Shown here one piece after another: positions 4,521-63,753 of a DNA stretch of 64,000 bases. Made by a program: the position numbers and the translations under genes. Each line of letters opens with the position of its first letter. The first letter of the stretch is position 1. The notes below the pieces were generated by a model. That model was not told where the DNA came from. It did not search any database and saw nothing but the letters and a program-made list of their open reading frames with translations. This DNA comes from Firmicutes bacterium CAG:460 (GTDB taxonomy: Bacteria; Bacteroidota; Bacteroidia; Bacteroidales; UBA932), in contig CAVFNP010000001.1 of assembly GCA_963624185.1 (NCBI GenBank), positions 48,491 through 112,490 on the forward strand, read 5' to 3'.

Positions 4521-6848
4521 ATGAAAAAGTTATTTTATTTGGCTACGCTCGGTCTGCTCGCACTTTCGTGTCAGCAGTACGACGACACGGCCATCACTAA
4601 AAGGGTTGATGAACTCGAAGACAGGGTTACAGCCCTTGAAAAATTGCAGACCCAGGTTAATGATCTTCAGAATCTGGTAAAGGCTCTCGAAGCTAAGGAT
4701 TATGTCACGGCTGTTCAGCCTATAACGGAAGGCGGTGTCACTGTAGGTTACGCCATCATGTTCTCTCAGAGTGACCCTATCGAACTTCGTAACGGACAGA
4801 ACGGAAAAGACGGCGTTGATGGAGCTGCAGGAAAGGATGGCTCTGTGGTCAGCATCAAACAGGATACGGACGGCATTTACTATTGGACAATCGATGGAGA
4901 ATTCACAAACCCTAAACTCAGGGTTGACGGCGTAACTCCTGCATTCAAGATAGATGATGAAGGATATCTTTGCGTATCTTATGACGGAAGCACCACTTGG
5001 ACGCGTCTCGGAAAGACTGCCGCCGATGTCGTAGCTAATTACGAGGTGGAATATGACGACGATTATGTCTATATCACATTCCTGGATGACGATAACTATA
5101 AAGTTACAATCCCTCGTTATAAGGAGTTTGCGCTTTCTATCGCCAAGGCTGGTGGAATCGGTATCAAGGCTGGGGCTACATTGAGCATTCCTTACGTTGT
5201 AACTAACGGGGACGATGCTACCGTAGTGGAAACAATCAGCGAGAATGGTTTCAGCGCAGTGGTAGAGAAGACTTCCGCTACCCAGGGTAATATCAAGGTC
5301 ACCGCACCTGATCCGTTCGTGGCCGGTAAGGTCCTCGTATTCGCATCCAAGGGTGACAAGACCTGCATGAAGGCTCTTTATTTCGAAGCTGAAGAGTTTA
5401 AGATCAGCACTACCGCATATAAGGTAGGTAAGTATTCTGAAACAGTGGATGTCAAGTTCTTTGCCAATATAGAATTCAGCGTAGAGATTCCAGCTGCTGC
5501 TGCTTCTTGGATTTCTCTTGTTCAGACCAAATCCACAGAGCATACCGTAACTCTTAAGGTAGAGGACAATACGGGTGAAGCACGTAGCGCCTTGGTTGAC
5601 ATCAAGAATGCGGAAGGCGTTACTCTTCAAAGCATAACCATAGAGCAGGAGGCATATAAGGAAGAGGTTATCGAGAGCCTGTTCGGATACCAGATATATA
5701 CCGACGATACACACGGATTTACTCAGGATGCCAACTTCACCATGGCGGTGATAGGGGATTATCTTATCCTTTCTAACAGCAAGAACATTGACGAGATGCC
5801 TGTATATGACCGTTTCACCGGTGAACTTCTTTCTGATGTCAAGGTCAATACGGAAGGAATCAACTGCAAGGACCGTGAATTCCGCGCCATCGCTTCCGAT
5901 GATGCCGGGCATCTTTTCGCGGTAACTTATACATCAATAGCCGACGAAGATACTTCCAATAATACTGTTCGTGCCTATGTGTGGAAAAACGGAATAGACC
6001 AGAAGCCTACTTCATTCCTTTGGGCCGGTTTAGATGGTAGTCAATATAAGGCGCTTACTACTAAAGGAGACATCTATAATACTGTTCATGTCTATGGAGA
6101 TCTTACGGGAGACGCTGTAATCGCTACTTCTTCACGTCAAAATTATCGCCCTGTATTCGAGTTCGTAAAAGACGGTAAACTTCAGAGTCCGGCTTATGTT
6201 TATTGGCCTGGCGATAAGGCAGTCGTGTCTTTTGGACAGATGACCAATGTCATTCCTCTCGCTTTCCCTAACGATCTTACCGCTCCTACCAACATGGAGT
6301 TCTTCTACAATACCGGTAATCATAACCAGCAGATTGTTTCTGTCTCTAATTCTACTACCGCGTTCCCTTATGACAGGCCTTCATCTCACTGGTGGCCATA
6401 CCAGGAATCTATTAAATATCAGAGACCTTGTCTTGGCTTTGATGCCATAAAGATCAACGGAACCGTAATAGTGGCTGCCCATAATGCCGTTTATGCCGGT
6501 ACTACTTCTGAGGCGGGAACTTTCAGATATAACTCAAGACTTTATGTTGCCAATGTAGGTCTTAACTCTACTGCCTCTTCTCTTAAGGACGGCTTCATTT
6601 TCGATTCTCGAGAAGGAGATAAGACAGGCGATGAGAGCAAGGGTGGCCCTAAGGGAACGGGTTATGCTGTTACAGGCATGATGTCTCCATTCTCTTTCGT
6701 GACAGGCAAGACCGTGCTCGCTGAAAACGACAACGAGGCATTTTATGTGCTTCTTGCTCCGGGAAAAGACGGTCACAGCGTTCAGGCATATATGCTTGGC
6801 CAGAACAACGGATTGTTCGCATATAACATTCCTTTCAGTAAATTTTAG
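4521..6848 (+). CDS. PUL-encoded surface lipoprotein with an N-terminal coiled coil and a short collagen-like GXY run (DUF4988-like N-terminus, named from memory); C-terminal domain paralogous to the previous gene
   Basis: 775-aa ORF with lipoprotein signal MKKLFYLATLGLLALSC. A heptad-like segment RVDELEDRVTALEKLQTQVNDLQNLVKALEA is followed by GQNGKDGVDGAAGKDG (nt 4794-4841). The C-terminal blocks are shared with 2574-4493. Confidence 0.6.
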   Translation: MKKLFYLATLGLLALSCQQYDDTAITKRVDELEDRVTALEKLQTQVNDLQNLVKALEAKDYVTAVQPITEGGVTVGYAIMFSQSDPIELRNGQNGKDGVDGAAGKDGSVVSIKQDTDGIYYWTIDGEFTNPKLRVDGVTPAFKIDDEGYLCVSYDGSTTWTRLGKTAADVVANYEVEYDDDYVYITFLDDDNYKVTIPRYKEFALSIAKAGGIGIKAGATLSIPYVVTNGDDATVVETISENGFSAVVEKTSATQGNIKVTAPDPFVAGKVLVFASKGDKTCMKALYFEAEEFKISTTAYKVGKYSETVDVKFFANIEFSVEIPAAAASWISLVQTKSTEHTVTLKVEDNTGEARSALVDIKNAEGVTLQSITIEQEAYKEEVIESLFGYQIYTDDTHGFTQDANFTMAVIGDYLILSNSKNIDEMPVYDRFTGELLSDVKVNTEGINCKDREFRAIASDDAGHLFAVTYTSIADEDTSNNTVRAYVWKNGIDQKPTSFLWAGLDGSQYKALTTKGDIYNTVHVYGDLTGDAVIATSSRQNYRPVFEFVKDGKLQSPAYVYWPGDKAVVSFGQMTNVIPLAFPNDLTAPTNMEFFYNTGNHNQQIVSVSNSTTAFPYDRPSSHWWPYQESIKYQRPCLGFDAIKINGTVIVAAHNAVYAGTTSEAGTFRYNSRLYVANVGLNSTASSLKDGFIFDSREGDKTGDESKGGPKGTGYAVTGMMSPFSFVTGKTVLAENDNEAFYVLLAPGKDGHSVQAYMLGQNNGLFAYNIPFSKF

Positions 6849-14002: not shown

Positions 14003-15310
14003 ATGGCCAATAACAGTAAAAAAACTAATCTGAGTGCGATGATCATTCTCGCGGCGATGTTTTTCATCTTCGGCTTCGTGTCGTGGGTGAATTCGATTCT
14101 GATTCCGTATTTCAGAATCTCTTGCGAGCTGACTCATTTTGAATCTTATTTTGTCACATTTGCCTTTTATATAGCTTATTTCATTATGGCTATCCCGTCA
14201 AGTATCCTGCTTAAGAAGGTGGGATTCAAAAGCGGTATAATGATAGGCTTCATGATAATGGCTGCCGGTATGTTCGTGTTTGTTCCGGCAGCTATGGTAA
14301 GGGAGTTTGCGGTGTTTCTGCTTGGATTGTTCCTTATCGGGACGGGGCTGGCCATACTTCAGACTGCTGCCAATCCTTATGTCACCATCATAGGTCCTAT
14401 AGAGAGTGCCGCACAGAGGATAAGCATAATGGGAATCTGCAATAAATTGGCAGGTATAGTGTCTCCGCTGGTGTTCGCTGCGGTTATTCTCAGCCCGACG
14501 GACGGTGAACTGTTTGCGCTCATAGAGTCGGGAACGCTCTCGGATGTGGACAAGAATATTATTCTCGACGATCTTATCCGCCGTGTGATAGTGCCTTACA
14601 GTATCCTGGGTGCAGCCTTGTTGGTTTTCGGCCTGTTCATCAAGCACTCCAGCCTTCCTGAGATTGACACTGAAGAGAAGAATGCATCTGAAGATGAAGG
14701 AGAGTCCAGAAGAAGCGTGTTCTCGTATCCATATCTGGTGCTTGGCGCCATAGCTATTTTCTTTCACGTGGGAAGTCAGGTAGTGGCAATCGACACGGTA
14801 ATCAACTATGCTGATTCCATGGGTATCAATATGTTGGAAGCCAAAGTGTTCCCGTCGTATACTCTGACTTGCACCATGATAGGCTACATTCTGGGCATAT
14901 TCCTTATCCCCAAGGTCGTCTCACAGCGCCAGGCTTTGGTTTTCTGCTCTTGTCTGGGACTCATACTGTCGCTATGTGTGGTGTTTGTGGACTGTCCTGT
15001 AGTATTCTTTGGACACCATATTAATCTTTCACTGCTTTTCCTCTGTGCACTAGGATTTCCTAATGCCTTGATATACGCCTCTATCTGGCCGTTGTCAATA
15101 CATAATCTGGGTAAATTCACCAAAATAGGCTCGTCGCTTCTTATCATGGGCCTCTGCGGCAATGCCATTATGCCGCAGGTATATGGACTTATAGCTCGAG
15201 GAACGACCCTTAGAGCGGGATATTGGGTGCTGATTCCTTGCTTTTTGTATCTGATATTCTTCGCCCTCAAAGGTTACAAGATCAATTATTGGACTAAACA
15301 GAGTAAGTAA
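14003..15310 (+). CDS. MFS sugar:H+ symporter of the FucP/GluP/NagP type (likely hexosamine or hexose importer)
   Basis: 435 aa with about 12 hydrophobic segments. The N-terminal pattern FFIFGFVSWVNSILIPYF...LQTAANPYV is typical of glucose/galactose/fucose-family MFS permeases. It lies directly upstream of nagA. Confidence 0.85.
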   Translation: MANNSKKTNLSAMIILAAMFFIFGFVSWVNSILIPYFRISCELTHFESYFVTFAFYIAYFIMAIPSSILLKKVGFKSGIMIGFMIMAAGMFVFVPAAMVREFAVFLLGLFLIGTGLAILQTAANPYVTIIGPIESAAQRISIMGICNKLAGIVSPLVFAAVILSPTDGELFALIESGTLSDVDKNIILDDLIRRVIVPYSILGAALLVFGLFIKHSSLPEIDTEEKNASEDEGESRRSVFSYPYLVLGAIAIFFHVGSQVVAIDTVINYADSMGINMLEAKVFPSYTLTCTMIGYILGIFLIPKVVSQRQALVFCSCLGLILSLCVVFVDCPVVFFGHHINLSLLFLCALGFPNALIYASIWPLSIHNLGKFTKIGSSLLIMGLCGNAIMPQVYGLIARGTTLRAGYWVLIPCFLYLIFFALKGYKINYWTKQSK

Positions 15311-15312: not shown

Positions 15313-16512
15313 ATGGATAAACTGATAATAAAGGGGGGGAAATTGGTTTTTCCGGACAGGATAGAAAGCGGTCTTGCTCTGGTGTGCGACCGTTCCGAAG
15401 GAAAGATACTTGGTGTCGTCAGAGACTCTGATCTGAATGTCGAGAGCACAGACGAAGTCATCGATGCCGCAGGCTCTTACGTAAGTCCGGGATTTGTGGA
15501 TATTCACGTACACGGTGGCGGCGGATATGATTTTATGGACGGAACCATCGAAGCTTTTCTGGGTGCCAGCCGTATGCACGCCACGCACGGAACGACATCT
15601 ATGATTCCGACTACCGTGACCAGCACCGATGAAGATCTGTACGGGGTGTTCGATATATTCGAAAAAGCCTCTTCTCTCAATAAGGACGGCGCCGCTATGC
15701 TTGGCCTGCACCTGGAAGGACCTTATTTCAGCGCCGCGAAAAGCGGAGCGCAGGACCCCTCATATCTTAAGAATCCTACTCCAGAGCATTATATGCCAAT
15801 CCTTGAAGCCACTGACAAGATTATGCGCTGGAGTGTAGCGACTGAACTGCCTGGGGCTATGGCGTTCGGTGACGAACTCAGCAGGCGCGGTATTCTGCCG
15901 TCAATGGCGCATTCGGATGCTGTTTACGAAACGGTGGAAGAATCTGTACTCCACGGATATTCACATGTGACGCATCTGTATTGCGCGATGTCCACCATTG
16001 TTCGTAAAAATGCGTTTCGTTACGCCGGACTTCAGGAGGCGGCCTTCCTTTTGGACGACCTTACCGTGGAGATTATTGCGGACGGAGTGCATCTCCCTCG
16101 GCCACTTCTTCAATATGCTTTCAAGTTCAAGGGTGCGGATAAGACTGCGCTTTGCACTGATGCTATGCGAGCTGCCGGAATGCCGGACGGAACATATATC
16201 CTGGGCAGTCTGAAAAATGGTCAAAGCGTAATCGTGGAAGATGGGGTGGCCAAACTTCCGGACCGCAGTGCGTTTGCCGGCAGTGTCGCCACTACAGACA
16301 GGCTTGTCCGTACGATGGTGCAGGTGGCCGGCGTTTCTCTGGTGGATGCTGTGAAAATGATGACACTCACCCCGTCGCGAATAATGCGCATAGATGGTCG
16401 TAAAGGTTCGCTTCTGAGCGGAAAAGATGCTGATATAGTGATATTTGATGACAATATAGAAATCTTGGCCACCATTCGTGGCGGGAAAACCATATATAAA
16501 AAACATAATTGA
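15313..16512 (+). CDS. nagA: N-acetylglucosamine-6-phosphate deacetylase
   Basis: 399 aa. It has the amidohydrolase metal motif GFVDIHVHGGGGYDFMDG and the downstream HLEGP and ADGVH blocks typical of NagA. Confidence 0.9.
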   Translation: MDKLIIKGGKLVFPDRIESGLALVCDRSEGKILGVVRDSDLNVESTDEVIDAAGSYVSPGFVDIHVHGGGGYDFMDGTIEAFLGASRMHATHGTTSMIPTTVTSTDEDLYGVFDIFEKASSLNKDGAAMLGLHLEGPYFSAAKSGAQDPSYLKNPTPEHYMPILEATDKIMRWSVATELPGAMAFGDELSRRGILPSMAHSDAVYETVEESVLHGYSHVTHLYCAMSTIVRKNAFRYAGLQEAAFLLDDLTVEIIADGVHLPRPLLQYAFKFKGADKTALCTDAMRAAGMPDGTYILGSLKNGQSVIVEDGVAKLPDRSAFAGSVATTDRLVRTMVQVAGVSLVDAVKMMTLTPSRIMRIDGRKGSLLSGKDADIVIFDDNIEILATIRGGKTIYKKHN

Positions 16513-27075: not shown

Positions 27076-28914
27076 TTATTCAGCTTCAGTGATTTCCACT
27101 GCCATGGTGTTAAGATATTTTTCGTCTGTTCCGCTTAATCCTATGGCATAGCCTGTTACCGTGATGTTTTGCCCTTCAAGACTTATGAGCAGTGACTTAT
27201 GGTCATTTGTAGGGTATGAAACCGATCCTATAATATCTGTTCCGTCCACAGCTACATTATAGTGATACTGATAATATTGATCTCGTGTGGATGTAAGTTT
27301 ACCTGTGTATCTGACATATTTGATACTTGGATTATCTGCCCACTTGGTGAATCCGTCTCCGTCGAGAACTTCTGGCTCCGGGTAAGATACTTCTGCAGTT
27401 CCAGTCTTGGTGATTGTAGTGGATTCTCCGAATTGTTTGAACCCTCCGTAAGTGGTGGTAGTACCTTCAAGTGTAAGGACATCACCCACTTCTACACCAT
27501 GTTTTTTCTTGAATGTCAGGATAATGCCTGTGTCGTCCTTTATCAGGAATCCCTTATAGTGAATGGCAATGACCGTTCCCTGGATTTTATAGATGTTGTC
27601 AACAGGGGAGTCGAGAACTTCTGCTATAGTGGAAGTCGTCACTTCGTCTTCTTTTCCGAATTCTATGACTTGTCCGCCATCACCCGGAGTTAGCAGAACA
27701 TCGTCAAGACGGTTGACGCTGCTTAGTTTCGCCTCGAATTTAATGCATAGATTGGTGGTGCCTTCGGGAAGAGTGAAATTGGCAGTGGCAAGTCTCCAGT
27801 TACCTGCTACGTCATCTGTATCGAAGGCATAATCAAGTGCCTGTGACCAGGTTTCCCCATCTTCAGATACACGTACTACGAAATCTGATTTGATGAATGT
27901 GTTGGTCCCGCCCTGAGAGTATCGCTGTGCTCCGAAACTGAGCTTTAGATTACGCTCGTTTACCGCTATATTTTTGATCGTGAAATAACTTGGAACACTG
28001 CTGAAGAACATGTTGTTCTTTCCTGAACCGTCATATTCTGAAAGGTAACCTTTGGATGACTGGTTTGTGCGTACGGAGATGCTTTTGTAATCGTAGCTTA
28101 CGCCCTCGGCAGAGGAACCTTTTTCATTTTTCCAACCGTCGAAGTCATCGTCCAGAAAAGGCCATTGGCCACCGGTGCTTCCGTATGACTGGGTAGCGAG
28201 AGTCTTGTCGAATGTGTTGTAATAGATGGCGCCATCCGGAACTATTTCTTCATCCATGCCAAGATCTTCTACAGCCGTAGGGATGGTGTAGAAGAAAGAT
28301 TTATAGGCTCCGAAAAGCCATCCCGTGATCTTGACTCTGTGTCCGGCGTATTGGCTTTTGAATTCGTCTGTCATATAATCGAGACTTCCCTTATATGAGG
28401 ACTTGTCCAGTTCCACATTGGTATAATTGCCTGAAAGCATTATGGTTCCGCTGTATGTTACATATTTGATACTTGGGGAAGCCATATAGTTTTCTATGTC
28501 TTCATCTTTGAGTTCTACACTTTCCGGATATGTTATCTCTGTGGTCCCAGTCTGGTCGAGAGAGCATCCGCTTGCAAATTGCGGAAGGGCGTTGCGAGTG
28601 GCGGTCTCTCCGGCAACGGTTACGACATCGCCTGCGCTAAGATTGTGAGCCTGACCGTAAAAAGCGTAAATGTAGGAATCATCCTGCCCAAGGAGCACAC
28701 CGTGAGTGTTGGCCCCGACTACAACAGCACCCTTGACCTCATAGGTGGAGCCTATATCACCGGCAAGCACATCCTTAATGGTGGTGCCAATTTCTGGTTC
28801 GTCCGGATCTACCTGGTCTTTCTTGTCGTCAGGTGTAACTTGTTCTTTGTTGCAGGACACGCTGAAAAGGCAGAACGTAGCTGCCAATGCGATAAATTTT
28901 AAGGATTTTTTCAT
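27076..28914 (-). CDS. Surface lipoprotein with two copies of an OB-like module flanking a CBM-like middle domain; unknown function
   Basis: 612 aa with lipoprotein signal MKKSLKFIALAATFCLFSVSC. An internal duplication is visible: TIKDVLAG..YEVKGAVVV..GDVVTVAGE...PSIKYVTYSG versus TIAEVLDS..YKIQGTVIA..GDVLTLEGT...PSIKYVRYTG. Confidence 0.6.
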   Translation of the reverse strand: MKKSLKFIALAATFCLFSVSCNKEQVTPDDKKDQVDPDEPEIGTTIKDVLAGDIGSTYEVKGAVVVGANTHGVLLGQDDSYIYAFYGQAHNLSAGDVVTVAGETATRNALPQFASGCSLDQTGTTEITYPESVELKDEDIENYMASPSIKYVTYSGTIMLSGNYTNVELDKSSYKGSLDYMTDEFKSQYAGHRVKITGWLFGAYKSFFYTIPTAVEDLGMDEEIVPDGAIYYNTFDKTLATQSYGSTGGQWPFLDDDFDGWKNEKGSSAEGVSYDYKSISVRTNQSSKGYLSEYDGSGKNNMFFSSVPSYFTIKNIAVNERNLKLSFGAQRYSQGGTNTFIKSDFVVRVSEDGETWSQALDYAFDTDDVAGNWRLATANFTLPEGTTNLCIKFEAKLSSVNRLDDVLLTPGDGGQVIEFGKEDEVTTSTIAEVLDSPVDNIYKIQGTVIAIHYKGFLIKDDTGIILTFKKKHGVEVGDVLTLEGTTTTYGGFKQFGESTTITKTGTAEVSYPEPEVLDGDGFTKWADNPSIKYVRYTGKLTSTRDQYYQYHYNVAVDGTDIIGSVSYPTNDHKSLLISLEGQNITVTGYAIGLSGTDEKYLNTMAVEITEAE

Positions 28915-29967: not shown

Positions 29968-31230
29968 ATGAGAACTTCAATTGTTGTGGGATGCGTCCTG
30001 GGCGGCGTAGCCTTTTTCGGAGCAACTTCTTGCTCTACATCTTTAAAACTGAATAATATCCGCTCTAACGGGATAAATGCCTCCCTGTCACTTCCAAGTG
30101 AAAGTGAGATACGCCGTTATGGAGGGAATACGAGGAAACAGAGTGCCGACGAGGATGGTCTTTATGCTATGCGGACTTACAAGGATACTCTCAGTGGGGA
30201 GGTAATGGGATCGGAAGACCTGGATGCCGCTGTAATAGTAGCCAAGTTCAGAAATGTCGCAGAGCGTAGAGGTGAGGTTGATTTTGACTTTATGATAGTC
30301 GCCTCCGATTCACTTCAGGATCCGTCTTGGCAGTTGCGTTTTTTCCCTATGTTGTATTTCGAAGGCGGAGATTCATTGGCATTGGCCCCGGTGTATCTGA
30401 CAGGAAAGGATTTCCGTGATGCGCAGCTTCGAGGCTATAGTCTATATGAAGGGTACTTATCTTCTCTTTCACGGGACAGTACACGTTTTGTTGATAATGC
30501 TCAGGCTGATGCCTTCAGAGCGCGTTTTCCTTCATCGGGAAAGAATGCTGGAGAACATTTCAGAAGGCCGCTGGTGGAAAAATACAATGCGTATAAACTT
30601 TCGTTTAAGGATGATTTGCAGCAGCGTCTCATTAGGGTGCCTCGTTCGGATGCTTCCGTTCGGCGCGACAGTACGGCCCAGGGCGGAAGATTCATTTATC
30701 TGTATCATCAGAGGATAGAGTCCGGTCGGAGCATGTCGAGATTTTATCTTAATGTTTCTACGCAGATTCATAACGGACGCGATATCATCTGGTATTCGCG
30801 TCCTTCAGAGAGCATAACGTACTATGTCAGTTCTCTTAGTTCGCTTGTTGATAATGAATTGGCGCTTCTTCACGAAGGAGATTCCACCTATCGAGAAGGC
30901 GTGCTTCATCTTCGGAGCCGCGAGTGGGAGCCGGCTCTGGAACAGCTGGCGCCATATGAGGATTATAATGCTGCATTGGCATATCTGGCACTGGAATATA
31001 ATGCCACGGCAAGTCTTATTCTTGAGAATTTGCCTGTCAAAACGGCGGCGTGCCATTATCTGATGGCTATAGCATATTCCAGACGCGGGATGGAGGCCGA
31101 GTGCGTAGAAGAACTCAAACAGGCAGTGTCGGCAGAATATTCATACAAATACAGGGGCAATCTCGATCCCGAAATCGCCCCTGTAATAAGGAAGTATGAT
31201 CTGTTCAGCGAAGATGAATTGTATAATTAG
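29968..31230 (+). CDS. Hypothetical lipoprotein; its last ~29 codons contain the 69-bp repeat
   Basis: The ATG at 29968 gives MRTSIVVGCVLGGVAFFGATSC, a lipoprotein signal. About 420 aa. The C-terminus is ...YSYKYRGNLDPEIAPVIRKYDLFSEDELYN. Confidence 0.6.
   Translation: MRTSIVVGCVLGGVAFFGATSCSTSLKLNNIRSNGINASLSLPSESEIRRYGGNTRKQSADEDGLYAMRTYKDTLSGEVMGSEDLDAAVIVAKFRNVAERRGEVDFDFMIVASDSLQDPSWQLRFFPMLYFEGGDSLALAPVYLTGKDFRDAQLRGYSLYEGYLSSLSRDSTRFVDNAQADAFRARFPSSGKNAGEHFRRPLVEKYNAYKLSFKDDLQQRLIRVPRSDASVRRDSTAQGGRFIYLYHQRIESGRSMSRFYLNVSTQIHNGRDIIWYSRPSESITYYVSSLSSLVDNELALLHEGDSTYREGVLHLRSREWEPALEQLAPYEDYNAALAYLALEYNATASLILENLPVKTAACHYLMAIAYSRRGMEAECVEELKQAVSAEYSYKYRGNLDPEIAPVIRKYDLFSEDELYN
31143..31211 (+). 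repeat. Direct repeat copy A (69 bp, identical to 33280-33348), inside the 3' end of CDS 29968-31230
   Basis: I compared atacaaatacaggggcaatctcgatcccgaaatcgcccctgtaataaggaagtatgatctgttcagcga base by base with the second copy and found them identical. It contains the 8-bp inverted repeat ACAGGGGC/GCCCCTGT (31151-31184). Confidence 0.95.
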
Positions 31231-31252
31231 CCGTATGGGATAGAGTATAAGT

Positions 31253-31591
31253 CTAGTGAGCTATTTTCAGAATTAGTTCCTTGAGTTGAGGAACATCTTG
31301 TGTTGCGGTTTCCCAAAGAATTTCCGGAAGAATATTTGAATACCCGTGAACAAGAACGTGACGCATTTTGATAACTTGTTTCCACGGAATCTCAGAATGT
31401 GAATTTTTGAACCCTTCCGTGAGCATATTTGCTGCTTCACCTATAATTTCAATATTTTTCATCACGGCAAAATATCGGATCTTATCAGCCAAAAACTGCT
31501 CGTATGTTAATCCTTTAACAAACGAAATGATGTAGTCTGCCGCTTCAAGTATATCTTGAATACGCCCTGGATCGCGTTCAACTTCTCTCAT
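31253..31591 (-). CDS. hepT: HepT-like (DUF86) toxin of a type VII toxin-antitoxin pair
   Basis: 112 aa with the Rx4HxY motif as RHVLVHGY. Its start overlaps the upstream nucleotidyltransferase gene by 14 nt. Confidence 0.85.
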   Translation of the reverse strand: MREVERDPGRIQDILEAADYIISFVKGLTYEQFLADKIRYFAVMKNIEIIGEAANMLTEGFKNSHSEIPWKQVIKMRHVLVHGYSNILPEILWETATQDVPQLKELILKIAH

Positions 31592-31871
31592 AAATCAGAA
31601 TTTTATCGTGATTGACTGATGCCTCTGCGTATGGGCGAAGGGAACCTTCTGGGATGATATCAACGCTTCTCCCCAACAGTTCCTCCAGATCAAGTGACAT
31701 TCCAGATAACTTCATAAGAGAAATCTTGGCGGTATTGTCGAATGCTATAAGCAAATCAATATCGCTGTCAGATGTTTCTTCTCCTCTCGAATAAGAACCG
31801 AAAAGCCAAGCTTTTGAGATTGGCTGAGAAGAAAAATACTCCTTTAGTGTATTTATAATGGTACTACTCAT
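31578..31871 (-). CDS. mntA: MntA-like minimal nucleotidyltransferase antitoxin
   Basis: It contains LFGSYSRGEETSDSDIDLL, the GSx10DxD nucleotidyltransferase signature. I prefer the ATG at 31871 over the TTG at 31889. Confidence 0.85.
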   Translation of the reverse strand: MSSTIINTLKEYFSSQPISKAWLFGSYSRGEETSDSDIDLLIAFDNTAKISLMKLSGMSLDLEELLGRSVDIIPEGSLRPYAEASVNHDKILIYERS

Positions 31872-31886
31872 ATAGTTCAGTCTGCC

Positions 31887-31894
31887 CAAATATA
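31887..31894 (-). promoter_or_regulatory. -7 promoter box (TATATTTG) for the mntA-hepT operon
   Basis: The minus strand reads TATATTTG (TAnnTTTG consensus) 16 nt upstream of the mntA ATG. Confidence 0.35.
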
Positions 31895-31935
31895 TTGAGT
31901 TTTATTCAAATTACCAAACCCTTTCATTCAAGGAA

Positions 31936-31958
31936 ACAGGGGCAATCTCGATCTCGAA
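31936..31958 (+). repeat. Partial (left-arm) copy of the 69-bp repeat
   Basis: acaggggcaatctcgatcTcgaa matches repeat positions 9-31 with one mismatch. The right arm of the inverted repeat is absent. Confidence 0.8.
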
Positions 31959-31990
31959 GTTGTTTTTGCATGGGCTTTTTGATAAACCGA

Positions 31991-32533
31991 TTATTGCTTG
32001 GAGTCAATTTTTTTCAGTGTTATTGAGATATTGGCAAGTACTTTCATTATTGCCCAGGTTGCAATGCTTGTCAATAAAACAGTAATTGCAATAACTAACC
32101 CTGAAGGATTGAATACAGTGTCTTCTGTAAAGCTATAATGCTCTCGAGGAAGTTTTTGAAAAGATAGTGTGAAGAAACATAATATAGACGAGATTATTCC
32201 GAAAATAAGGATTATGGTAGCCACTGTTTTTATGGTAGATTCCGCTGTGTTATTCTCGTGGGGTTCACTATTTTCTTTGCATGTTATATACTCTAAAATT
32301 TCGTTATATTCTTCATCGGATACCTCTACTGGTGTTTTTTTATAACCATAGTATTGTTTCTTTTCATTATCCCAGTATGGATAGTCATTAGTTATATGGC
32401 GGGAATCCTCGCTGTATACTTTTTCTTTTTCACAAAGGCCTATAGAGACAAGTATTTGATCTTTTTCATTTCTTAGGTTTTCTAATTTCTTGGCTCGAGC
32501 CTCATTTAAGAATTTTTCAACTTTAGTGTTCAT
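31991..32533 (-). CDS. Hypothetical membrane protein (soluble N-terminal domain plus two C-terminal TM helices)
   Basis: 180-aa ORF in the AT-rich segment. TM-like stretches are TVATIILIFGIISSILCFFTL and GLVIAITVLLTSIATWAIMKVL. I recognised no family. Confidence 0.55.
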   Translation of the reverse strand: MNTKVEKFLNEARAKKLENLRNEKDQILVSIGLCEKEKVYSEDSRHITNDYPYWDNEKKQYYGYKKTPVEVSDEEYNEILEYITCKENSEPHENNTAESTIKTVATIILIFGIISSILCFFTLSFQKLPREHYSFTEDTVFNPSGLVIAITVLLTSIATWAIMKVLANISITLKKIDSKQ

Positions 32534-32544
32534 GTCGGTATGGT

Positions 32545-33060
32545 TTATTTATAATTATTTAATGTTTCGATATAGTAGTAGATTGTCTGAATGGATTCAT
32601 TTATGGAATTGTCGACAAGAGCAATGCTGGCGTCGTATTTTTTTACAGATTTAAACCTGTCCCTATTTGCCTGTAGTTCCTCTTTTATTTCAATTTTTGC
32701 CTTTAACTGTTTAAAACTATTTATCAAAAGATCGTGTAAAGCAGCAAGTTTTGCAATGTCCCTCATGGTATCAGTACGAAGCATAAAATAGTTGTGAGGG
32801 TAGCAAGGAATATCATGTGGTTCATAATAGGAGATCTTAAAAAAATCGATAGGATCTTCAGATATAATGCTTAAAGCTTTATCGAAGTCATTATATATAT
32901 GGTATTTCCATTTGTTGAAAGAGAGATAGTTGCTTTCTTGACGTGAAACCAACTCGTCCATTTCATCGATGGCAACAAGTGCATCAAATAGAGCTTTATT
33001 CGGTGAATTACATGCTCCGAAAATGATAATTGCCAAAATAAAGTAAATATGTTTTTTCAT
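32545..33060 (-). CDS. Hypothetical small lipoprotein
   Basis: 171-aa ORF with lipoprotein signal MKKHIYFILAIIIFGAC. It is AT-rich, lies 11 nt upstream of the membrane-protein gene, and matches no family I recognise. Confidence 0.55.
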   Translation of the reverse strand: MKKHIYFILAIIIFGACNSPNKALFDALVAIDEMDELVSRQESNYLSFNKWKYHIYNDFDKALSIISEDPIDFFKISYYEPHDIPCYPHNYFMLRTDTMRDIAKLAALHDLLINSFKQLKAKIEIKEELQANRDRFKSVKKYDASIALVDNSINESIQTIYYYIETLNNYK

Positions 33061-33279
33061 GGTCTTTTTTGAAACTGTTATTTTTTTGTTGCTTTTGCAA
33101 GATAGTAATTATTATTGATATTGTTGGTGTAAGTAGGATATAATGGATAGTAAATTATGTGATTGAGTGAGCCTGTCCAGCCATTGACTGAGATGGAGGA
33201 AGGGGGCCACTAGTAACAAATCCGCTTGGCGGACAAAGATAAGAGAGGGGAGACTGGAGCTGAGTTTCCAAGACAGCAT

Positions 33280-33348
33280 ATACAAATACAGGGGCAATCT
33301 CGATCCCGAAATCGCCCCTGTAATAAGGAAGTATGATCTGTTCAGCGA
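33280..33348 (+). repeat. Direct repeat copy C (69 bp, identical to 31143-31211), abutting the nifJ stop
   Basis: Base-for-base identical to copy A. It ends 6 nt before the minus-strand stop codon of nifJ (33355). Confidence 0.95.
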
Positions 33349-33354: not shown

Positions 33355-36300
33355 TTACTCGACAGACAGTTTCTTGTAGTTGTTGTAACGGATCTTGGCA
33401 AATTCCTCTGTCTTCTCGAGCAGCTCCTGAGCCCTTTCAGGGTAGAGCTTGGTGAGAGAAGAGAAACGAACCTCGCCTTTGAGGAAGTCCTGGAACTTGG
33501 TCCAGTCAGGCTCCTTGCTGTCGAGGCTGAACGCCTTCTTGCCTTGCTCTTCGAGAGCAGGGTTGTAGCGGTACAGATGCCAATAGCCACACTCCACAGC
33601 GAGTTTCTCCTCTTTCTGGCTGAGTCCCATGCCGGCCTTGAGTCCGTGGTTGATACAAGGAGCATAAGCGATGATGAGCGATGGTCCGTCATATGCTTCA
33701 GCCTCCTTGATGGCGTTCATATACTGAACAGGGCTTGCACCCATAGCCACCTGTGCGACATAAACATATCCGTAGCTCATAGCCATCATTCCAAGGTCTT
33801 TCTTGCGGATCTTCTTGCCGCTTGCCGCGAATTTGGCGATAGCTCCCGCCGGTGTAGCCTTGGATGACTGTCCTCCGGTGTTTGAGTAAACCTCCGTGTC
33901 AAGTACGAGGATATTGACGTTCTCGCCTGATGCCAGAACGTGATCAAGTCCACCATAACCTATATCGTAAGAAGCACCGTCTCCACCGATAATCCACTGG
34001 CTGCGAGCCGGGATATACTGCTTGAGCGCGAGTATGCTCTTGCAGATGTCACATCCGCACTCCTCCATAAGAGGGACGAGCTTGTCTGAAATCTCACGTG
34101 TTGCAGTGTAATTTGACTTGTGGTCAAGCCATTTCTGGAAGAGAGTCTTGATTTCAGCTGAGCAGCACTCGCACTCCAGTCCCTGCTTCATAAGTGAAGC
34201 GATGGTTTCGCGCTTACGCTCTGATCCGAGTCTCATACCGAGACCGAATTCGCAGAAGTCTTCGAACAGAGAGTTCTGCCAAGCAGGACCGTGTCCCTTT
34301 TCGTTGGTGCAGTAAGGGCTTGCAGGGAACGATGCTCCGTAGATTGAAGAACATCCGGTAGCATTGGCTATCATCATATGGTCACCATAAAGCTGGGTGA
34401 TGTTCTTGATGTAAGGTGTCTCACCGCATCCGGCGCAAGCGCCACTGAATTCGAAGAGCGGCTGAGCGAATTGAGCGCTCTTCATATTGGCCTTAGGGTC
34501 AAGCACTTTTTTGTAGCCAACTTTAGTGTTGAGGTAATCGTAATTGGCCTGCTCTGCGGTGTTGTCTATGTAAGGTTCCATTACGAGAGCCTTCTCTTTG
34601 GCCATACATACGTCTACGCAGTTACCGCAACCGGTACAGTCAGCAACTGACACTGAGAGGGCGTATTTGTAATCTTTCAGATTAGCCTTGCCGTCTGCAT
34701 ATTTGAGTCCGGCAGGAACGTTGGCTGCCTCTTCTTCGGTAAGAAGGAAAGGACGGATGGCAGCGTGAGGGCAGACAAATACACAGCTGTTGCACTGGAT
34801 ACACTTGTCAGCCTCCCATACAGGCACGTTCACGGCCACTCCACGTTTTTCATAAGCGGCTGTTCCGTTAGGCATGGTACCGTCCATATATGGAACGAAA
34901 GCGCTTACCGGAAGTGAATCGCCCTCCTGAGAGTTGACTTTATCCGCGATCTCCTTGACGAATGCCGGAGCCAGACGCTCTGCGTTGTGGTTGACGAATT
35001 TAGCTGAGATATCAGCCCATTCGGCAGGTACTTCCACAGTATGGAATTCACCGCCGCGGTCGATGGCAGCATAGTTCATGTTAACCACGTTCTCGCCCTT
35101 TTTACCGTAGCTCTTCAGTGCTGCAGCTTTCATATAAGAAACTGCGTCAGCGACAGGGATTATGCCTGTGATTCTAAAGAATGCACTCTGAAGGATGGTG
35201 TTGGTTCTTCCTCCAAGTCCTATCTCCGCGGCAATCTTGGTGGCGTTGATGATATAGAACTTGATATGTTTGCGTCCGATGACGGCCTTTACGTGATCAG
35301 GAAGTCTTTCGATGGTCTCTTTCTCGTCCCAGAGAGAGTTGAGAAGGAATGAGCCGCCGTCCTTGATGCCTTTGAGTACGTCGTATTTTTCCAGGTATGA
35401 AGGAACGTGGCAAGCTACGAAGTCAGGGGTGTTGACCAGATAAGGTGCGTGTATAGGCTTCTCACCGAAACGAAGGTGTGAGCAAGTGTATCCGCCGGAT
35501 TTCTTGGAATCGTAGTCGAAGTAAGCCTGGCTGTAGAGGTCGGTGTGTGAACCGATGATCTTGATGGTGTTCTTGTTTGCACCTACGGTACCGTCGGATC
35601 CGAGTCCGTAGAATTTGCATTCGGTGGTGCCGGGTTTGACGATACTTACCTCACTCTTTATAGGAAGACTCTTGAATGTTACGTCATCCACTATGCCTAT
35701 GGTGAAGTCGTTTTTCGGCTCTTTCTGCTCGAGGTTGTCGAATACTGCTATGATCTGTGCAGGTGTAGTGTCCTTGCTTGAAAGACCATAACGTCCGCCT
35801 ATGATAAGAGGAGCATTGGCCTCACCCTGGAATACGGTCTTAATATCGAGGTAAAGAGGTTCTCCAAGTGAGCCAGGCTCTTTTGTGCGGTCGAGCACAG
35901 CGATCTTCTTGACGCTCTTAGGAAGAACTTTGAGGAGGTATTTCGTGCTGAAAGGACGATAGAGGTGAACAGAGATGACGCCGTATTTGCGTCCGCGTTC
36001 GCGGAGGTAGTCGATAGTCTCGCAGATGGTCTCGGTAACTGAGCCCATGGCGATGATGATATTCTCTGCGTCCGGAGCACCGTAATAGTCGAACGGACGG
36101 TATTGTCTTCCGGAGATTTCTCCGATCTCGCCCATATAGCGTGCCACTATGTCTGGAACGGCTTCATAAGCCTGATTTCTGGACTCTACGGCCTGGAAAT
36201 AAACATCTCCGTTCTGAGCTGTACCGCGTGTTACGGGAGCCTCCGGATTGAGGGCGCGGTCGCGGAAATTCTGAAGCGCCTTTTCGCTTACAAGTCCCTT

Positions 36301-36879
36301 GAGGTCTTCCTCATCGAGCAGTTCGATTTTCTGAATCTCGTGCGATGTCCTGAATCCGTCGAAGAAGTGAAGGAAAGGAATGCTGCTCTTGATGGTCGAG
36401 AGGTGTGCTACGGCAGCCATGTCCTGTGCTTCCTGAACTGATCCGGAAGCCAGAAGCGCGAATCCCGTCTGACGGCATGCCATAACGTCCTGATGATCTC
36501 CGAAGATGGAGAGGGCGTGGCTGGCAAGTGCACGTGCGGATACGTGGAATACTGTAGGAAGCATCTCACCTGCAATCTTGTACATATTTGGAATCATCAG
36601 AAGCAGACCCTGGGAAGCGGTGAAAGTGCTGGTAAGAGCACCTGCCTGAAGAGATCCGTGAACGGCACCGGCGGCACCTGCTTCACTCTGCATCTCGGTA
36701 ACCTTTACGGTCTCGCCCCAAAGGTTCTTCTTTCCTGCAGCTGACCACTCGTCCACGTTTTCTGCCATCGTGGATGATGGTGTGATAGGGTAGATGGCTG
36801 CATTCTCGCTGAAAAGGTAGGCGATGTTGCTGGCAGCCTGATTACCATCACAGGTAATGAATTTCTTTTCTTTTGACAT
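33355..36879 (-). CDS. nifJ: Pyruvate:ferredoxin (flavodoxin) oxidoreductase
   Basis: 1174 aa starting MSKEKKFITCDGNQAASNIAY. It has two ferredoxin-type clusters (CIQCNSCVFVCPHAAIRP and CTGCGNCVDVCMAKE) and the TPP-binding block GGDGASYDIGYGGLDHV. Confidence 0.95.
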   Translation of the reverse strand: MSKEKKFITCDGNQAASNIAYLFSENAAIYPITPSSTMAENVDEWSAAGKKNLWGETVKVTEMQSEAGAAGAVHGSLQAGALTSTFTASQGLLLMIPNMYKIAGEMLPTVFHVSARALASHALSIFGDHQDVMACRQTGFALLASGSVQEAQDMAAVAHLSTIKSSIPFLHFFDGFRTSHEIQKIELLDEEDLKGLVSEKALQNFRDRALNPEAPVTRGTAQNGDVYFQAVESRNQAYEAVPDIVARYMGEIGEISGRQYRPFDYYGAPDAENIIIAMGSVTETICETIDYLRERGRKYGVISVHLYRPFSTKYLLKVLPKSVKKIAVLDRTKEPGSLGEPLYLDIKTVFQGEANAPLIIGGRYGLSSKDTTPAQIIAVFDNLEQKEPKNDFTIGIVDDVTFKSLPIKSEVSIVKPGTTECKFYGLGSDGTVGANKNTIKIIGSHTDLYSQAYFDYDSKKSGGYTCSHLRFGEKPIHAPYLVNTPDFVACHVPSYLEKYDVLKGIKDGGSFLLNSLWDEKETIERLPDHVKAVIGRKHIKFYIINATKIAAEIGLGGRTNTILQSAFFRITGIIPVADAVSYMKAAALKSYGKKGENVVNMNYAAIDRGGEFHTVEVPAEWADISAKFVNHNAERLAPAFVKEIADKVNSQEGDSLPVSAFVPYMDGTMPNGTAAYEKRGVAVNVPVWEADKCIQCNSCVFVCPHAAIRPFLLTEEEAANVPAGLKYADGKANLKDYKYALSVSVADCTGCGNCVDVCMAKEKALVMEPYIDNTAEQANYDYLNTKVGYKKVLDPKANMKSAQFAQPLFEFSGACAGCGETPYIKNITQLYGDHMMIANATGCSSIYGASFPASPYCTNEKGHGPAWQNSLFEDFCEFGLGMRLGSERKRETIASLMKQGLECECCSAEIKTLFQKWLDHKSNYTATREISDKLVPLMEECGCDICKSILALKQYIPARSQWIIGGDGASYDIGYGGLDHVLASGENVNILVLDTEVYSNTGGQSSKATPAGAIAKFAASGKKIRKKDLGMMAMSYGYVYVAQVAMGASPVQYMNAIKEAEAYDGPSLIIAYAPCINHGLKAGMGLSQKEEKLAVECGYWHLYRYNPALEEQGKKAFSLDSKEPDWTKFQDFLKGEVRFSSLTKLYPERAQELLEKTEEFAKIRYNNYKKLSVE

Positions 36880-58315: not shown

Positions 58316-58463
58316 AAATTTAAATATTTGTGTTATGAATATGCCTACTCCTTATTGCATATTGTAAGTTATTCTGAAGGCATGTTGATAATTGAAGTGA
58401 TACATTAAATATTTAATATAAAGTCTTGTGGCTTAATTGTTTTGGTTTGATAATTGGCTTAAA

Positions 58464-58491
58464 AGCATCTCGGTTCCCGAGGTGCTTTTTT
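58464..58491 (+). terminator. Rho-independent terminator downstream of secA
   Basis: AGCATCTCGG-ttc-CCGAGGTGCT: a 10-bp stem with one G-U pair, followed by TTTTTT. Confidence 0.8.
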
Positions 58492-58546
58492 GTTTTATTC
58501 AGGTCCTCATACCTTCGTTAAAACACAAATTATAAAACAATTTATC

Positions 58547-58554
58547 TATATTTG
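58547..58554 (+). promoter_or_regulatory. -7 promoter box (TATATTTG) for the integrase gene
   Basis: It matches TAnnTTTG 70 nt upstream of the integrase ATG. The predicted leader contains an 8-bp hairpin (58583-58607) flanked by TGTTTTACAAA direct repeats. Confidence 0.3.
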
Positions 58555-58623
58555 CTCTACTATTGTTTTACAAACGCTCAATTTTCGGAGTAAAATTCGC
58601 TCCGAAATGTTTTACAAAAAAAT

Positions 58624-59856
58624 ATGCCGACATTCAAAGCCCAAGTGTTTGCTCATCAGAAGAAAAGAGACGGCACTTACAACATCAAGATAAGAGTAAC
58701 CCATAACCGCAAGAGCCGGTATGTCGCCACGCCATGGTTCGTCACAAAGGATGATGTGACGAAGTCCATGCGCATCAAGAATCAGAAGTATGTTGATCTG
58801 ACTGATGACCTGATAAAGAAGTATCGGGACATCAGTGACAGGATGGGAATGCCGATAATGGACTTGACCGTTGACCAGGTGGTGGACATCCTTCTCCATT
58901 TTCGGAACGAGGATAAGTTCGACTTGAACTTCGTGGCATATACGCGGGAGTATGCCGACAAAATAGAAGCTTCCGGACATGGCGGAACGGCCAAGAGATA
59001 CAGAACGGCCATAAATAGTCTTATCCGTTTTACCGGAAGAGAGCAGGTGTCGATATTCGAGATAACGGTGTCTTTCCTGAAGGCATGGTGCGAATGGATG
59101 AAGACGAACGTCAGTCGAGGAAACGGGGAGTCCGCGTCATATATGTATACGACCACGCTTAAGACCATGTACAGACGCGCGAAAAGGGAATTCAACGATG
59201 AGGATGCGGGCATCATACGCATTCCGAATTCTCCTTTCGAACACTTCGTTATTCCTAATGCTCCCATTCCGGACAAGCGCTCACTTTCTATAGAGGAGTT
59301 GCGCAGTATATTTGATTATGTCCCGAAGAAGAATGTTCGCACGGTTACTCTCGCCCAGGATGTGTTCAAGCTAAGCTTCTGTCTCATCGGGATGAATCCA
59401 GTGGACATATACACCTGTACAGACGGCAAGGGCGGGCGTATCACCTATCAGAGGACGAAGACGCGCACCAGACGTAAGGACAAGGCGGAGATAAGCGTCA
59501 GGATAGAGCCGGAGATAGAACTTCTGATGAAGAAGTACCGCGACCCTATGGGAGAGCGGGTGTTCAATTTCTATCTGCATTACAGCTCGCCTGCCGCCTT
59601 TGACGCATGCGTCAACAGAGGGCTTCATCTGATGGAAGAAGCCCTGGGCATAAAGAAGATTCAGCTATATTCCGCGCGCCATACATGGGCCACGTTGGCC
59701 GTCAATGATGTCGAGGTGGACAAGTATGTCGTGCATGAGGCGTTGAACCATATAGATGCGTCCATGAAAGTTACGGACGTCTATATCCGTAAGAATTGGA
59801 AGAATATAGACAAGGCCAACAGGGCGGTGCTCGACTATGTGTTTAGCGGTAACTAA
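58624..59856 (+). CDS. Tyrosine-type site-specific integrase with a Bacteroides-style N-terminal arm-binding domain
   Basis: 410 aa. The N-terminus MPTFKAQVFAHQKKRDGTYNIKIRVTHNRKSRY fits an arm DNA-binding domain. The C-terminal catalytic region SARHTWATLA...VHEALNHIDASMKVTDVYI carries the R..HxxR..H..Y pattern. Confidence 0.9.
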   Translation: MPTFKAQVFAHQKKRDGTYNIKIRVTHNRKSRYVATPWFVTKDDVTKSMRIKNQKYVDLTDDLIKKYRDISDRMGMPIMDLTVDQVVDILLHFRNEDKFDLNFVAYTREYADKIEASGHGGTAKRYRTAINSLIRFTGREQVSIFEITVSFLKAWCEWMKTNVSRGNGESASYMYTTTLKTMYRRAKREFNDEDAGIIRIPNSPFEHFVIPNAPIPDKRSLSIEELRSIFDYVPKKNVRTVTLAQDVFKLSFCLIGMNPVDIYTCTDGKGGRITYQRTKTRTRRKDKAEISVRIEPEIELLMKKYRDPMGERVFNFYLHYSSPAAFDACVNRGLHLMEEALGIKKIQLYSARHTWATLAVNDVEVDKYVVHEALNHIDASMKVTDVYIRKNWKNIDKANRAVLDYVFSGN

Positions 59857-59872
59857 ACATTGTTGTCCAATT

Positions 59873-60295
59873 CTATAGGGATATCTTGACATTGGATGAC
59901 GCGGTGCCACATTTGTTTTCGCTCAGTAGCCGTTCCACCAGGTGCCTGTATTCGTGATAGAGGGATTGGAGTTCCCGACGCAACTCTTGAATCTCTTTCT
60001 CAAAAATGTTGGTGATGGATTGATTGGCTTTGGATAATTCTATGTTGGCTTTGATGAGATAATCGCTCATGGCGATATTCTGTGCGCTGGACAATGTCAT
60101 GTTGTTGGCTGCCTTGGCGAATTCTTCCGCCCCTTTGGTGAGGTTGGATATCATCTGAGCAATGCTTCCTATCCGCATATCGGAAGCTCGGATCATCTCT
60201 ACGAATTGGGGCACCACTTGTTCGGCCACGACCTGTTCGGTGACTTGTTTGTGGACTTTCAGCAAGTCTTCGCGGTTGGTATATATTTCAGTCAT
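59873..60295 (-). CDS. Hypothetical helical (coiled-coil-like) protein
   Basis: 140-aa ORF, convergent with the integrase gene. The sequence is all-helical in appearance (…ELSKANQSITNIFEKEIQELRRELQSLYHEY…). No family recognised. Confidence 0.45.
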   Translation of the reverse strand: MTEIYTNREDLLKVHKQVTEQVVAEQVVPQFVEMIRASDMRIGSIAQMISNLTKGAEEFAKAANNMTLSSAQNIAMSDYLIKANIELSKANQSITNIFEKEIQELRRELQSLYHEYRHLVERLLSENKCGTASSNVKISL

Positions 60296-60306
60296 GTGGC
60301 TTTAGA

Positions 60307-60645: not shown

Positions 60646-60750
60646 TTCCGTTATGCAGTATTCCGGTACGCGGTAGCGGGTGGTCCGGCAGAGCTCGCGT
60701 GCTATGCCGTATAAAGGCTCGACCAGGAAATGCAGGAAATCTGAATTGTT

Positions 60751-61047: not shown

Positions 61048-61130
61048 AAGGCTAAAATTGTGTTAGTGCTTGTTGTTGTAATGGTTTCTGTACTATAGCA
61101 TGTAGTACAGAAATGGATTATATTATGGCG

Positions 61131-62218: not shown

Positions 62219-62240
62219 CGCCATTAATTATGGCTGATAT

Positions 62241-63669: not shown

Positions 63670-63753
63670 CCGACTTAATGAACAGCCCACTATTTACATC
63701 ACTAATTGGCGGTCTGTTTCAGAAAGTACAGATAGGTTTCTTCCGTGTCTTCT

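Follow-up and report, generated by a model that had tools for sequence, protein, structure and literature searches.

Between a lipoprotein gene and the convergent gene nifJ, the 64,000-nucleotide stretch of contig CAVFNP010000001.1 analysed here (the window; from a genome deposited as Firmicutes bacterium CAG:460 and placed by GTDB among the Bacteroidales) carries an AT-rich insert that is bounded by two identical 69-bp direct repeats. We refer to the repeated segment as S and to its copies on the lipoprotein side and the nifJ side as S1 and S2. The insert is composed of two cassettes, C1 with a hepT/mntA pair and C2 with two envelope genes, while S itself spans the 3' untranslated region (3'UTR) of nifJ and includes a predicted terminator. 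Different cargo is found at the same spot in related species, and the locus is therefore a recurrent, recombinase-less insertion site. From sequence comparison we propose, with a probability of roughly 45%, that S is an att-like site at which cassettes are exchanged by conservative recombination, with the crossover in a hairpin and the enzyme encoded elsewhere.

The 69-mer occurs exactly twice in the window, with 0 mismatches (coordinates of all features are given in Table 1), where 100 shuffles gave a chance expectation of 0. It is the only direct repeat of at least 28 nt; otherwise there is a single 25-nt repeat within another gene. S1 lies within the final 88 nt of the lipoprotein open reading frame (ORF), and S2 stops 6 nt short of the nifJ stop codon (complement 33355-33357). 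The 2.07 kb between the copies hold four minus-strand ORFs, and the G+C content of the insert, 0.357 (C1 0.381, C2 0.341), is below that of the lipoprotein gene (0.478), nifJ (0.509) and the whole window (0.471). A preliminary description of this DNA had reported perfect 69-bp repeats at exactly these positions, the first in the end of the lipoprotein gene and the second 6 nt from the nifJ stop, enclosing an AT-rich segment with hepT, mntA, a protein with two transmembrane segments (2-TM protein) and a small lipoprotein on the minus strand. Repeat search, ORFs, Pfam matches and base composition agree with it on all of these points.

The same description regarded the region as an accessory insertion and suggested a search for an empty site in close relatives. 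Such a site was found in a conspecific genome (GCA_963610325.1, locus L086) that was retrieved by an exact match to the NifJ protein. Alignment of its DNA with the window gives two blocks, with 99.4% identity for the lipoprotein flank and 98.8% for the nifJ flank; NifJ is identical, and L086 has a single S. Since these blocks share precisely the 69-mer, the window can be described as L086 with 2,137 additional bp, among them one more copy of S. Empty sites are also present in the sister species L001 and L008. Logan unitigs from two other runs (L003/L004) are identical to window positions 31182-33309 and end 30 nt inside each repeat, which is what k=31 would produce, and near-identical C1 and C2 proteins are encoded on 13-17 contigs of up to 153 kb. 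Together with the L086 comparison these data show that the arrangement is not a one-off. An assembly artefact, with either a small circle that shares 69 bp drawn into the chromosomal path or a wrong join at the repeat, is very improbable. It is true that all data are short-read assemblies of metagenome-assembled genomes (MAGs) or unitigs, that a de Bruijn graph with k below 69 cannot tell an integrated cassette from a circle plus an empty site, and that the Logan unitigs break exactly within the repeats. However, the same architecture appears in four lineages by independent assemblies and pipelines and on long contigs, a circle of 0.8-2 kb with just a toxin-antitoxin (TA) pair or envelope genes would have no replication function, and 69 bp are shorter than the reads and hence resolvable by assemblers. 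Import by recombination from a diverged donor was rejected as well, since the single-nucleotide polymorphisms between the window and L086 form no divergent tract at either junction.

The insertion exchanges the end of the lipoprotein gene. The final 23 lipoprotein codons are shared with S1, and the closing six codons and the stop (EDELYN*; the asterisk marks the stop codon) are supplied by the insert. The native read-through end, ...DLFSEQDYSTDSFL, is present in the homologues P0002-P0004 and is encoded by the empty-site genome L086, in which the lipoprotein has 424 aa compared with 420 aa in the window. The insert swaps the native tail QDYSTDSFL for EDELYN* and retains the conserved YRGNLDPEIA...LFSE end, so that both the native C-terminus foreseen in the preliminary description and its idea of a replaced but restored gene end were borne out. 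The YRGNLDPEIA motif is conserved among ~2,900 lipoprotein homologues, and the convergent adjacency to nifJ is kept down to ~39% lipoprotein identity. At every repeat-flanked site the lipoprotein gains a short tail of the form acidic-x-Tyr-stop (EDELYN*, EDEMYN*, EEEMY*, EEEGY*, EEDGY*, EENDY*), whichever way the cargo is oriented. These tails look like the usual C-terminus of the lipoprotein family (EEEEY*, EEDY*), and their DNA is alike in the window, L005, L009, L089, L007 and even L022 (GAAGAGGATG...CTATTGA). The host lipoprotein has no functional assignment in Pfam, NCBIfam or PADLOC. A different ending is seen in L006 (11240-21248), where the lipoprotein gene closes with ...SEDYSTE* and, in place of nifJ, genes for a GH3 glycosidase, a hybrid two-component regulator and an esterase come next; the breakpoint lies just inside a remnant of the nifJ end (gattactcgac), and this arrangement appears to be a rearrangement or a very large insertion.

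The 69-mer covers the whole nifJ 3'UTR, from 6 nt past the stop to the end of the U-tract, and holds a 36-nt imperfect palindrome. In nifJ-sense (minus-strand) RNA the palindrome starts 32 nt past the nifJ stop and forms a perfect 16-bp stem with 8 GC and two G-U pairs, followed by UUUGUAU; in plus-strand RNA the same two G-U positions become A-C mismatches. Both copies of S are the top terminator-like sites of the region. Across 16 lineages with nifJ as convergent neighbour, 95.7% of the cells are paired, compensatory double changes occur at three hairpin pairs (for example CG/GC/AU at one of them), and one covarying pair also alters the encoded residue (Pro/Ser/Ala). Among ~60 paralogues and orthologues that have the YRGNLDPEIA motif but do not lie beside nifJ, just 5-12 of the 16 positions pair, and 10 Watson-Crick pairs are left in the decayed stem of L007, where a repeat-less insertion lies between nifJ and the hairpin. 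Because the pairing is specific to the nifJ strand, covarying, restricted to nifJ-adjacent orthologues and decayed in L007, we read the hairpin as the intrinsic terminator of nifJ, embedded in the coding sequence of the lipoprotein. It has the GC-rich stem-loop, the U-tract, the location on the sense strand and the covariation of a rho-independent terminator, and from these features we infer termination itself. S1 keeps the lipoprotein C-terminus intact and provides a predicted terminator for the cassette transcripts, and S2 keeps the predicted terminator of nifJ.

Two further terminator-like structures deserve mention. A small second hairpin (GTCCGCCAAGCGGAT followed by TTGTT) lies on the minus strand at window positions 33220-33234, just inside C2, where it separates the nifJ terminator copy from the promoter region of the small lipoprotein gene. 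In L034 and L035 a 31-nt terminator-like hairpin with a T-tract, CTGTCCGGCTGAGAAGTCCGACAGCCTTTTT, occurs at 14032-14062 and 16022-16052, 1,990 bp apart, around one gene for a 631-aa lipoprotein, possibly another instance of a gene enclosed by terminator copies. A general process of terminator-duplicating insertion was nevertheless rejected, as L034/L035 is just one other possible case in 1.5 Mb of related loci and relatives of the TA pair occur at two other loci without long flanking repeats.

The insert itself is divided by a third, partial repeat copy, ACAGGGGCAATCTCGATCTCGAA, that sits between mntA and the 2-TM gene and does not fold (z=0.2). In the sister species L002/L005 (~90% average nucleotide identity to the window) hepT/mntA stand alone at the site, with 84% nucleotide identity to C1 and a 58-nt perfect repeat, and in L005 a full nifJ-side repeat occupies the position equivalent to the half copy of the window. 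Three occupancy states can thus be observed: empty (L001, L008, L086), C1 alone (L002/L005) and C1 with C2 (the window, L003/L004). L001 is empty, yet it is 95.3% identical to the C1-bearing L005. The left junction of C2 lies inside the hairpin, and its right junction consists of the left arm plus 8 nt (ATACAAAT) that are identical to the lipoprotein gene. C2 does not restore the lipoprotein end and is seen only behind C1; had it entered a naive site, the conserved end of the lipoprotein (...RGNLDLEVVFAWAF*) would have been replaced. Judged from these junctions, the half-site is the apparent remnant of the original nifJ-side repeat of C1 and marks the C1/C2 boundary, C2 having entered that repeat.

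The cargo of C1 has the features of a type VII HepT/MntA toxin-antitoxin system, namely an adjacent gene pair with a 14-nt overlap and Pfam matches for both proteins, while the matches to NCBIfam HepT_toxin and MntA_antitoxin are below the equivalog cut-offs. HepT/MntA relatives with 82-85% amino acid identity were also seen in other metagenomes, in L092 (4695-5426) and L100-L102 (~4700-5600), after an alpha-2-macroglobulin gene or fimbrial genes and with no long repeats beside them; the L092 pair has a 14-nt promoter-like motif, TCATATATTTG(C/A)GC, on both sides. The C2 proteins received no assignment in Pfam, NCBIfam or PADLOC. For the 2-TM protein, 5.8 billion proteins contained only three homologue clusters, with just two distant relatives on short contigs and in unrelated contexts. 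Directly downstream of one 2-TM homologue of 43% identity (L088, 227-943, on a 1.2-kb contig) there is a 41-aa C-terminal piece of a tyrosine recombinase (Phage_integrase).

In most lineages with the lipoprotein/nifJ adjacency the site is empty. In L009 the hepT/mntA pair is inverted, its cassette flanks are different and the repeat is perfect over 68 nt. L089 resembles L009 with an additional convergent gene for 177 aa, and its repeat copies differ at one base; this gene is likewise without a Pfam, NCBIfam or PADLOC assignment. In L022, L090 and L091, the hosts of which have a 601-aa lipoprotein, the cargo is a 916-aa OMP_b-brl_3 protein with a 110-119-aa CarboxypepD_reg protein, flanked by perfect 62-64-nt repeats of their own S, which differs by ~30% from that of the window. 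L007 (5060-6535) holds a plus-strand gene for a CHASE2-domain membrane protein with its own bidirectional terminator, no flanking repeat and the lipoprotein tail EEDEALY*. At all occupied sites the G+C content of the cargo is 5-16 points below that of the flanks. The flanking repeats measure 58-71 bp, and each is the host's own version of S; at the repeat-flanked sites it starts at the hairpin base (0-7 nt outside) and ends 0-6 nt from the nifJ stop.

Our preference for an att-like site follows from the exact presence and absence of the insert, the recurrent cargo, the tandem addition at the hairpin, the gene-end-restoring layout and the left arm plus loop, GGGGCAATCTCGATCYCGAA, which is the stretch common to all junction pairs. 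A stem-loop, identity to the gene end and an element-supplied tail together form the att layout of integrases that target tRNA genes or icd, and the palindrome, when read as 13-bp arms around an 8-bp centre, resembles lox or FRT sites. In the mechanism that we propose, circular cassettes without a recombinase, carrying S or the hairpin half, would integrate and excise by conservative recombination. The crossover would take place in or next to the hairpin, with its 13-bp inverted arms and 8-bp centre CGATCCCG, and the enzyme would come from elsewhere in the genome or from another element. C1 would have arrived first, bringing the full gene-end replacement. C2 would have entered the nifJ-side copy later and brought only the left arm and the U-tract, rebuilding the nifJ terminator and leaving the half-site. 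Cycling via the empty state in the species pool might keep both copies identical and host-specific.

Several observations weigh against this proposal. Pfam scans revealed no recombinase gene in the insert or within ~25 kb, no larger integrase-bearing element occupies the site among ~20 species with the locus, and no circular or attP-only contig was found with the 24-mer GGCAATCTCGATCCCGAAATCGCC, which matched 0 viral contigs and 1 metagenome locus (the single JGI match, an empty locus). The cassette-side part of S1 is always host-matched, in lineages whose S differs by 3-30%, and an element-borne attP predicts this only when species-confined pools or gene conversion are added. The repeat of 58-71 bp is long enough for RecA-dependent recombination, and close relatives of the TA pair live in other genomic contexts without such repeats. 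Homologous recombination via the repeats and the conserved flanks would give the same pattern of presence and absence. The preliminary description had spoken of a non-autonomous, trans-mobilised cassette site without a recombinase inside or adjacent. The missing recombinase and the cassette site both stand, the latter with varied cargo in other lineages, whereas for site-specific mobilisation in trans no recombinase, circle or free attP came to light in these searches.

The lone ORF of the 64 kb that resembles an integrase, of the tyrosine type (58624-59856, 410 aa), lies ~25 kb off and combines Phage_int_SAM_5 with Arm-DNA-bind_5, an architecture that we take to be typical of Bacteroidetes mobile genetic elements. 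We regard it as an unlikely candidate for the enzyme in question, as it belongs to a separate element, has nothing like S nearby and has nothing in its support. This AT-rich mobile element (58316-64000; 36-38% G+C at 62-64 kb) follows secA and a terminator, also encodes a Bro-N protein (61454-62038) and a helix-turn-helix/ImmA-IrrE protein (62554-63669), and extends past the window edge. Other origins of the insert were discarded too. A phage or plasmid source was rejected, as blastn against 50,697 phage and 72,556 plasmid records gave no match and viral contigs gave none either. Insertion sequences, miniature inverted-repeat transposable elements and transposons are characterised by terminal inverted repeats and target-site duplications of 2-15 bp; here the cassette ends have no inverted repeats, there is no transposase and the duplication is 58-71 bp. 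An integron, or a cluster of attC sites lacking integrase (CALIN), was rejected as well: there is no IntI by the array, the sequence reads as one 16-bp stem with a 4-nt loop and without AAC/GTT cores at its ends, and Rfam gave no relevant match. Sites of the attC type have two nested imperfect inverted repeats (R''-L''...L'-R') with RYYYAAC...GTTRRRY cores and stand in arrays of at least two.

The main and a serious rival to the att-like site, though in our judgement a somewhat unlikely one, dispenses with a dedicated recombinase. The region would be a variable islet that is lost by RecA action between the repeats and spreads among conspecifics through homologous recombination in the lipoprotein and nifJ genes at its flanks, after a rare Campbell-type origin from a circularised fragment with a lipoprotein 3' end and stop. 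The repeats are perfect and of sufficient length for RecA, nifJ, conserved at 85-99% of nucleotides, is an excellent recombination anchor, neither a recombinase nor a circle was found, and conspecific donors would naturally give host-matched repeats. The tails (EDELYN*, EEEMY*, EEDGY* and EEDEALY* of L007) resemble the canonical family end rather than cargo and are always at the left junction in either cargo orientation, and the G+C content of the TA cassette tracks that of the host (0.38 vs 0.45), which suggests long residence. However, RecA turnover explains poorly why independent duplications in distant lineages share the same boundaries (one at the hairpin base, the other within 0-6 nt of the nifJ stop), and why the C2 junction lies inside the hairpin with just 23-31 nt of shared sequence. 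The lack of a divergent flanking tract between the window and L086 also speaks against it, although a conspecific donor would leave none.

The host-matched repeats could also be created at insertion. Staggered breaks at both ends of S and fill-in would duplicate the 58-71 bp of the host, as in target-site duplication or the duplication of a CRISPR repeat. Copies that are identical within each genome and host-specific, across at least three cassette families and versions of S that differ by up to ~30%, are in line with this, and the boundaries coincide with structural landmarks, the nifJ 3'UTR being a discrete unit that reaches from the stop to where the terminator ends. Yet the repeat length varies (58, 62-64, 68 and 69 nt), the duplication flanking C2 is just 23 nt, the first codons of the insert look like a genuine lipoprotein tail and not like random cargo, and in L089 a single nucleotide distinguishes S1 from S2. 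We know of no transposase or integrase that produces duplications of 58-71 bp, which we count against such a duplicative insertion, and we regard it as improbable. An ancient, fixed duplication, in which the S1...S2 arrangement predates the lineage split, gene conversion keeps the copies uniform, the cargo turns over and empty sites are secondary deletions, seems equally hard to credit. The similarity of the junction tails across the window, L005, L009, L089, L007 and L022 would fit, as would the identity of C1 between the window and L005 (84%), which is like that of the flanks (85-93%). However, the site is empty, with one strongly covarying hairpin, in most lineages and in every deep-branching one, the cargo-side flanks of S2 are unrelated between lineages, presence and absence are polymorphic within one species, and the cargo is compositionally foreign.

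In a bolder reading, which we think unlikely, uncultured Bacteroidales would have an integron-like cassette platform not described before, with the nifJ terminator hairpin as its recombination site and with a full, host-matched copy of the terminator and 3'UTR regenerated at each insertion by a trans-acting recombinase or a duplicative mechanism. This would explain unrelated cargo flanked by perfect local copies in lineages with ~30% diverged sites, and cassettes may be captured just downstream of one of the most highly expressed genes of the cell.

Table 1. Positions in the window of the insert, the repeat copies and the adjoining genes
Feature	Position	Strand	Description
Host lipoprotein gene	29968..31230	+	420 aa; signal and lipobox, TPR-like C-terminal part
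Repeat copy S1	31143..31211	.	69 bp; encodes YKYRGNLDPEIAPVIRKYDLFSE of the lipoprotein; minus strand is a predicted terminator copy for cassette transcripts
S1 hairpin	31150..31185	-	16 bp, 4-nt loop, then UUUGUAU; top terminator-like match; RNA fold z=-6.5
Cassette C1	31212..31935	-	41-nt junction (lipoprotein tail and stop), hepT, mntA, mntA promoter region
hepT	31253-31591	-	Pfam HepT-like, E=3e-26
mntA	31578-31871	-	MntA-type nucleotidyltransferase; Pfam NTP_transf_2, E=4.5e-17
Half-site ACAGGGGCAATCTCGATCTCGAA	31936..31958	.	23 nt, 1 mismatch; hairpin left arm and loop, right arm replaced
Cassette C2	31959..33279	-	2-TM protein, small lipoprotein, 219-nt upstream region; G+C 0.34
2-TM protein	31991-32533	-	ORF; 180 aa, two hydrophobic segments
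Small lipoprotein	32545-33060	-	ORF; 171 aa, N-terminal signal and lipobox FGAC
Repeat copy S2	33280..33348	.	69 bp; nifJ 3'UTR, begins 6 nt past the stop and ends with the terminator U-tract
nifJ terminator hairpin (predicted)	33287..33322	-	16 pairs on nifJ-sense RNA (2 G-U); two A-C mismatches on the other strand
nifJ	33355..36879	-	pyruvate:ferredoxin/flavodoxin oxidoreductase, 1174 aa (Pfam); convergent with the lipoprotein gene

Some features lie apart from the insertion site. The 25-nt direct repeat of the window (27306-27330 and 28452-28476, 92% identity, 1,146 bp apart) is located in the gene of a 612-aa lipoprotein (27076-28914) and is probably an internal domain duplication. The window also contains a SusD-type polysaccharide utilisation locus. 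In L067 (12793-15757), ~3 kb from a lipoprotein paralogue, a 47-nt repeat (GTTGTGAATTGCTTACGTTTTTGTATCTTTGAAGCAGCAGTTACAGC) with regular short spacing forms what looks like a CRISPR array. The closest MAG records (L005-L010, H07xxx 'cleanbin') are titled Lachnospiraceae, Treponemataceae, Firmicutes, Anaerovoracaceae or Coprococcus despite a syntenic locus of Bacteroidales type, and these labels look wrong; for more distant relatives the labels are Candidatus Cryptobacteroides or Bacteroidales. The source of the window is probably an uncultured gut Bacteroidales.

If S is a true att site that is served in trans, abundant uncultured gut Bacteroidales would possess a compact, naturally occurring landing pad, and an intrinsic terminator embedded in a coding sequence could double as a recombination target. 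The three occupancy states in near-identical genomes would then offer a tractable case for the spread of tiny recombinase-less cassettes such as TA modules. Host-matched perfect repeats bear on the question of how cassette-associated repeats become species-specific, as for the attC sites of chromosomal integrons. If turnover is driven by RecA only, the locus would be an ordinary variable region between conserved genes.

The arrangement shares features with several known systems. The cis-mobilizable elements (CIMEs) related to ICEs (integrative and conjugative elements) and IMEs (integrative and mobilizable elements) of Streptococcus accrete in tandem at att sites (PMC5704250). As in a CIME, direct repeats are present at the nifJ site and genes for integration and transfer are absent; the attL/attR-like repeats at a gene 3' end, the tandem second element and the precise loss to a single site are further likenesses. 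In contrast to CIMEs, the nifJ site showed no related integrase-bearing ICE or IME among ~20 species with the locus, its cassettes are tiny (0.7-3.2 kb) and have no decayed backbone, and its repeat is long (58-71 bp), host-matched and doubles as a predicted transcription terminator. The staphylococcal cassette chromosome (SCC) and pseudo-SCC elements at the 3' end of rlmH (orfX) likewise use a conserved gene end as landing site, form repeat-separated arrays and in part need ccr in trans. However, the SCC repeats are ~15-18 bp and the Ccr serine recombinases are known, while the nifJ site belongs to another phylum, has no recombinase and uses a terminator hairpin as target. Phage 21 and e14 in icd, as well as integrases that act on tRNA and tmRNA genes with a stem-loop as core, likewise bring an alternative functional 3' end for the gene, and a remnant of the native end stays behind at the far side, but such phages and islands have their own integrase, measure tens of kb and bear gene ends that are usually unlike the host copy.

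Other parallels concern small modules without a recombinase of their own. CALINs (PMC4889954) and integrons have in common with the nifJ site small, often TA-carrying cassettes, imperfect palindromes, homogeneous host-specific repeats like those of sedentary chromosomal integrons, the lack of a cassette recombinase and a location downstream of a strong transcription unit. They differ in that the nifJ site lacks IntI, the R''/L''/L'/R' architecture and the GTTRRRY core, holds one or two cassettes only and is situated within a protein-coding gene. The pdif modules (integrative mobile elements exploiting Xer, IMEX), which are served by host XerC/D in trans, are recombinase-less, often contain TA genes, have short palindromic sites at their ends and occur in either orientation. 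In this case the nifJ hairpin is unlike the dif consensus (compared by eye), and pdif modules are plasmid-borne in Acinetobacter. What distinguishes the nifJ site from all of these is the combination of a site that is an intrinsic terminator, by prediction, within a coding sequence, long host-matched repeats and minimal cassettes.

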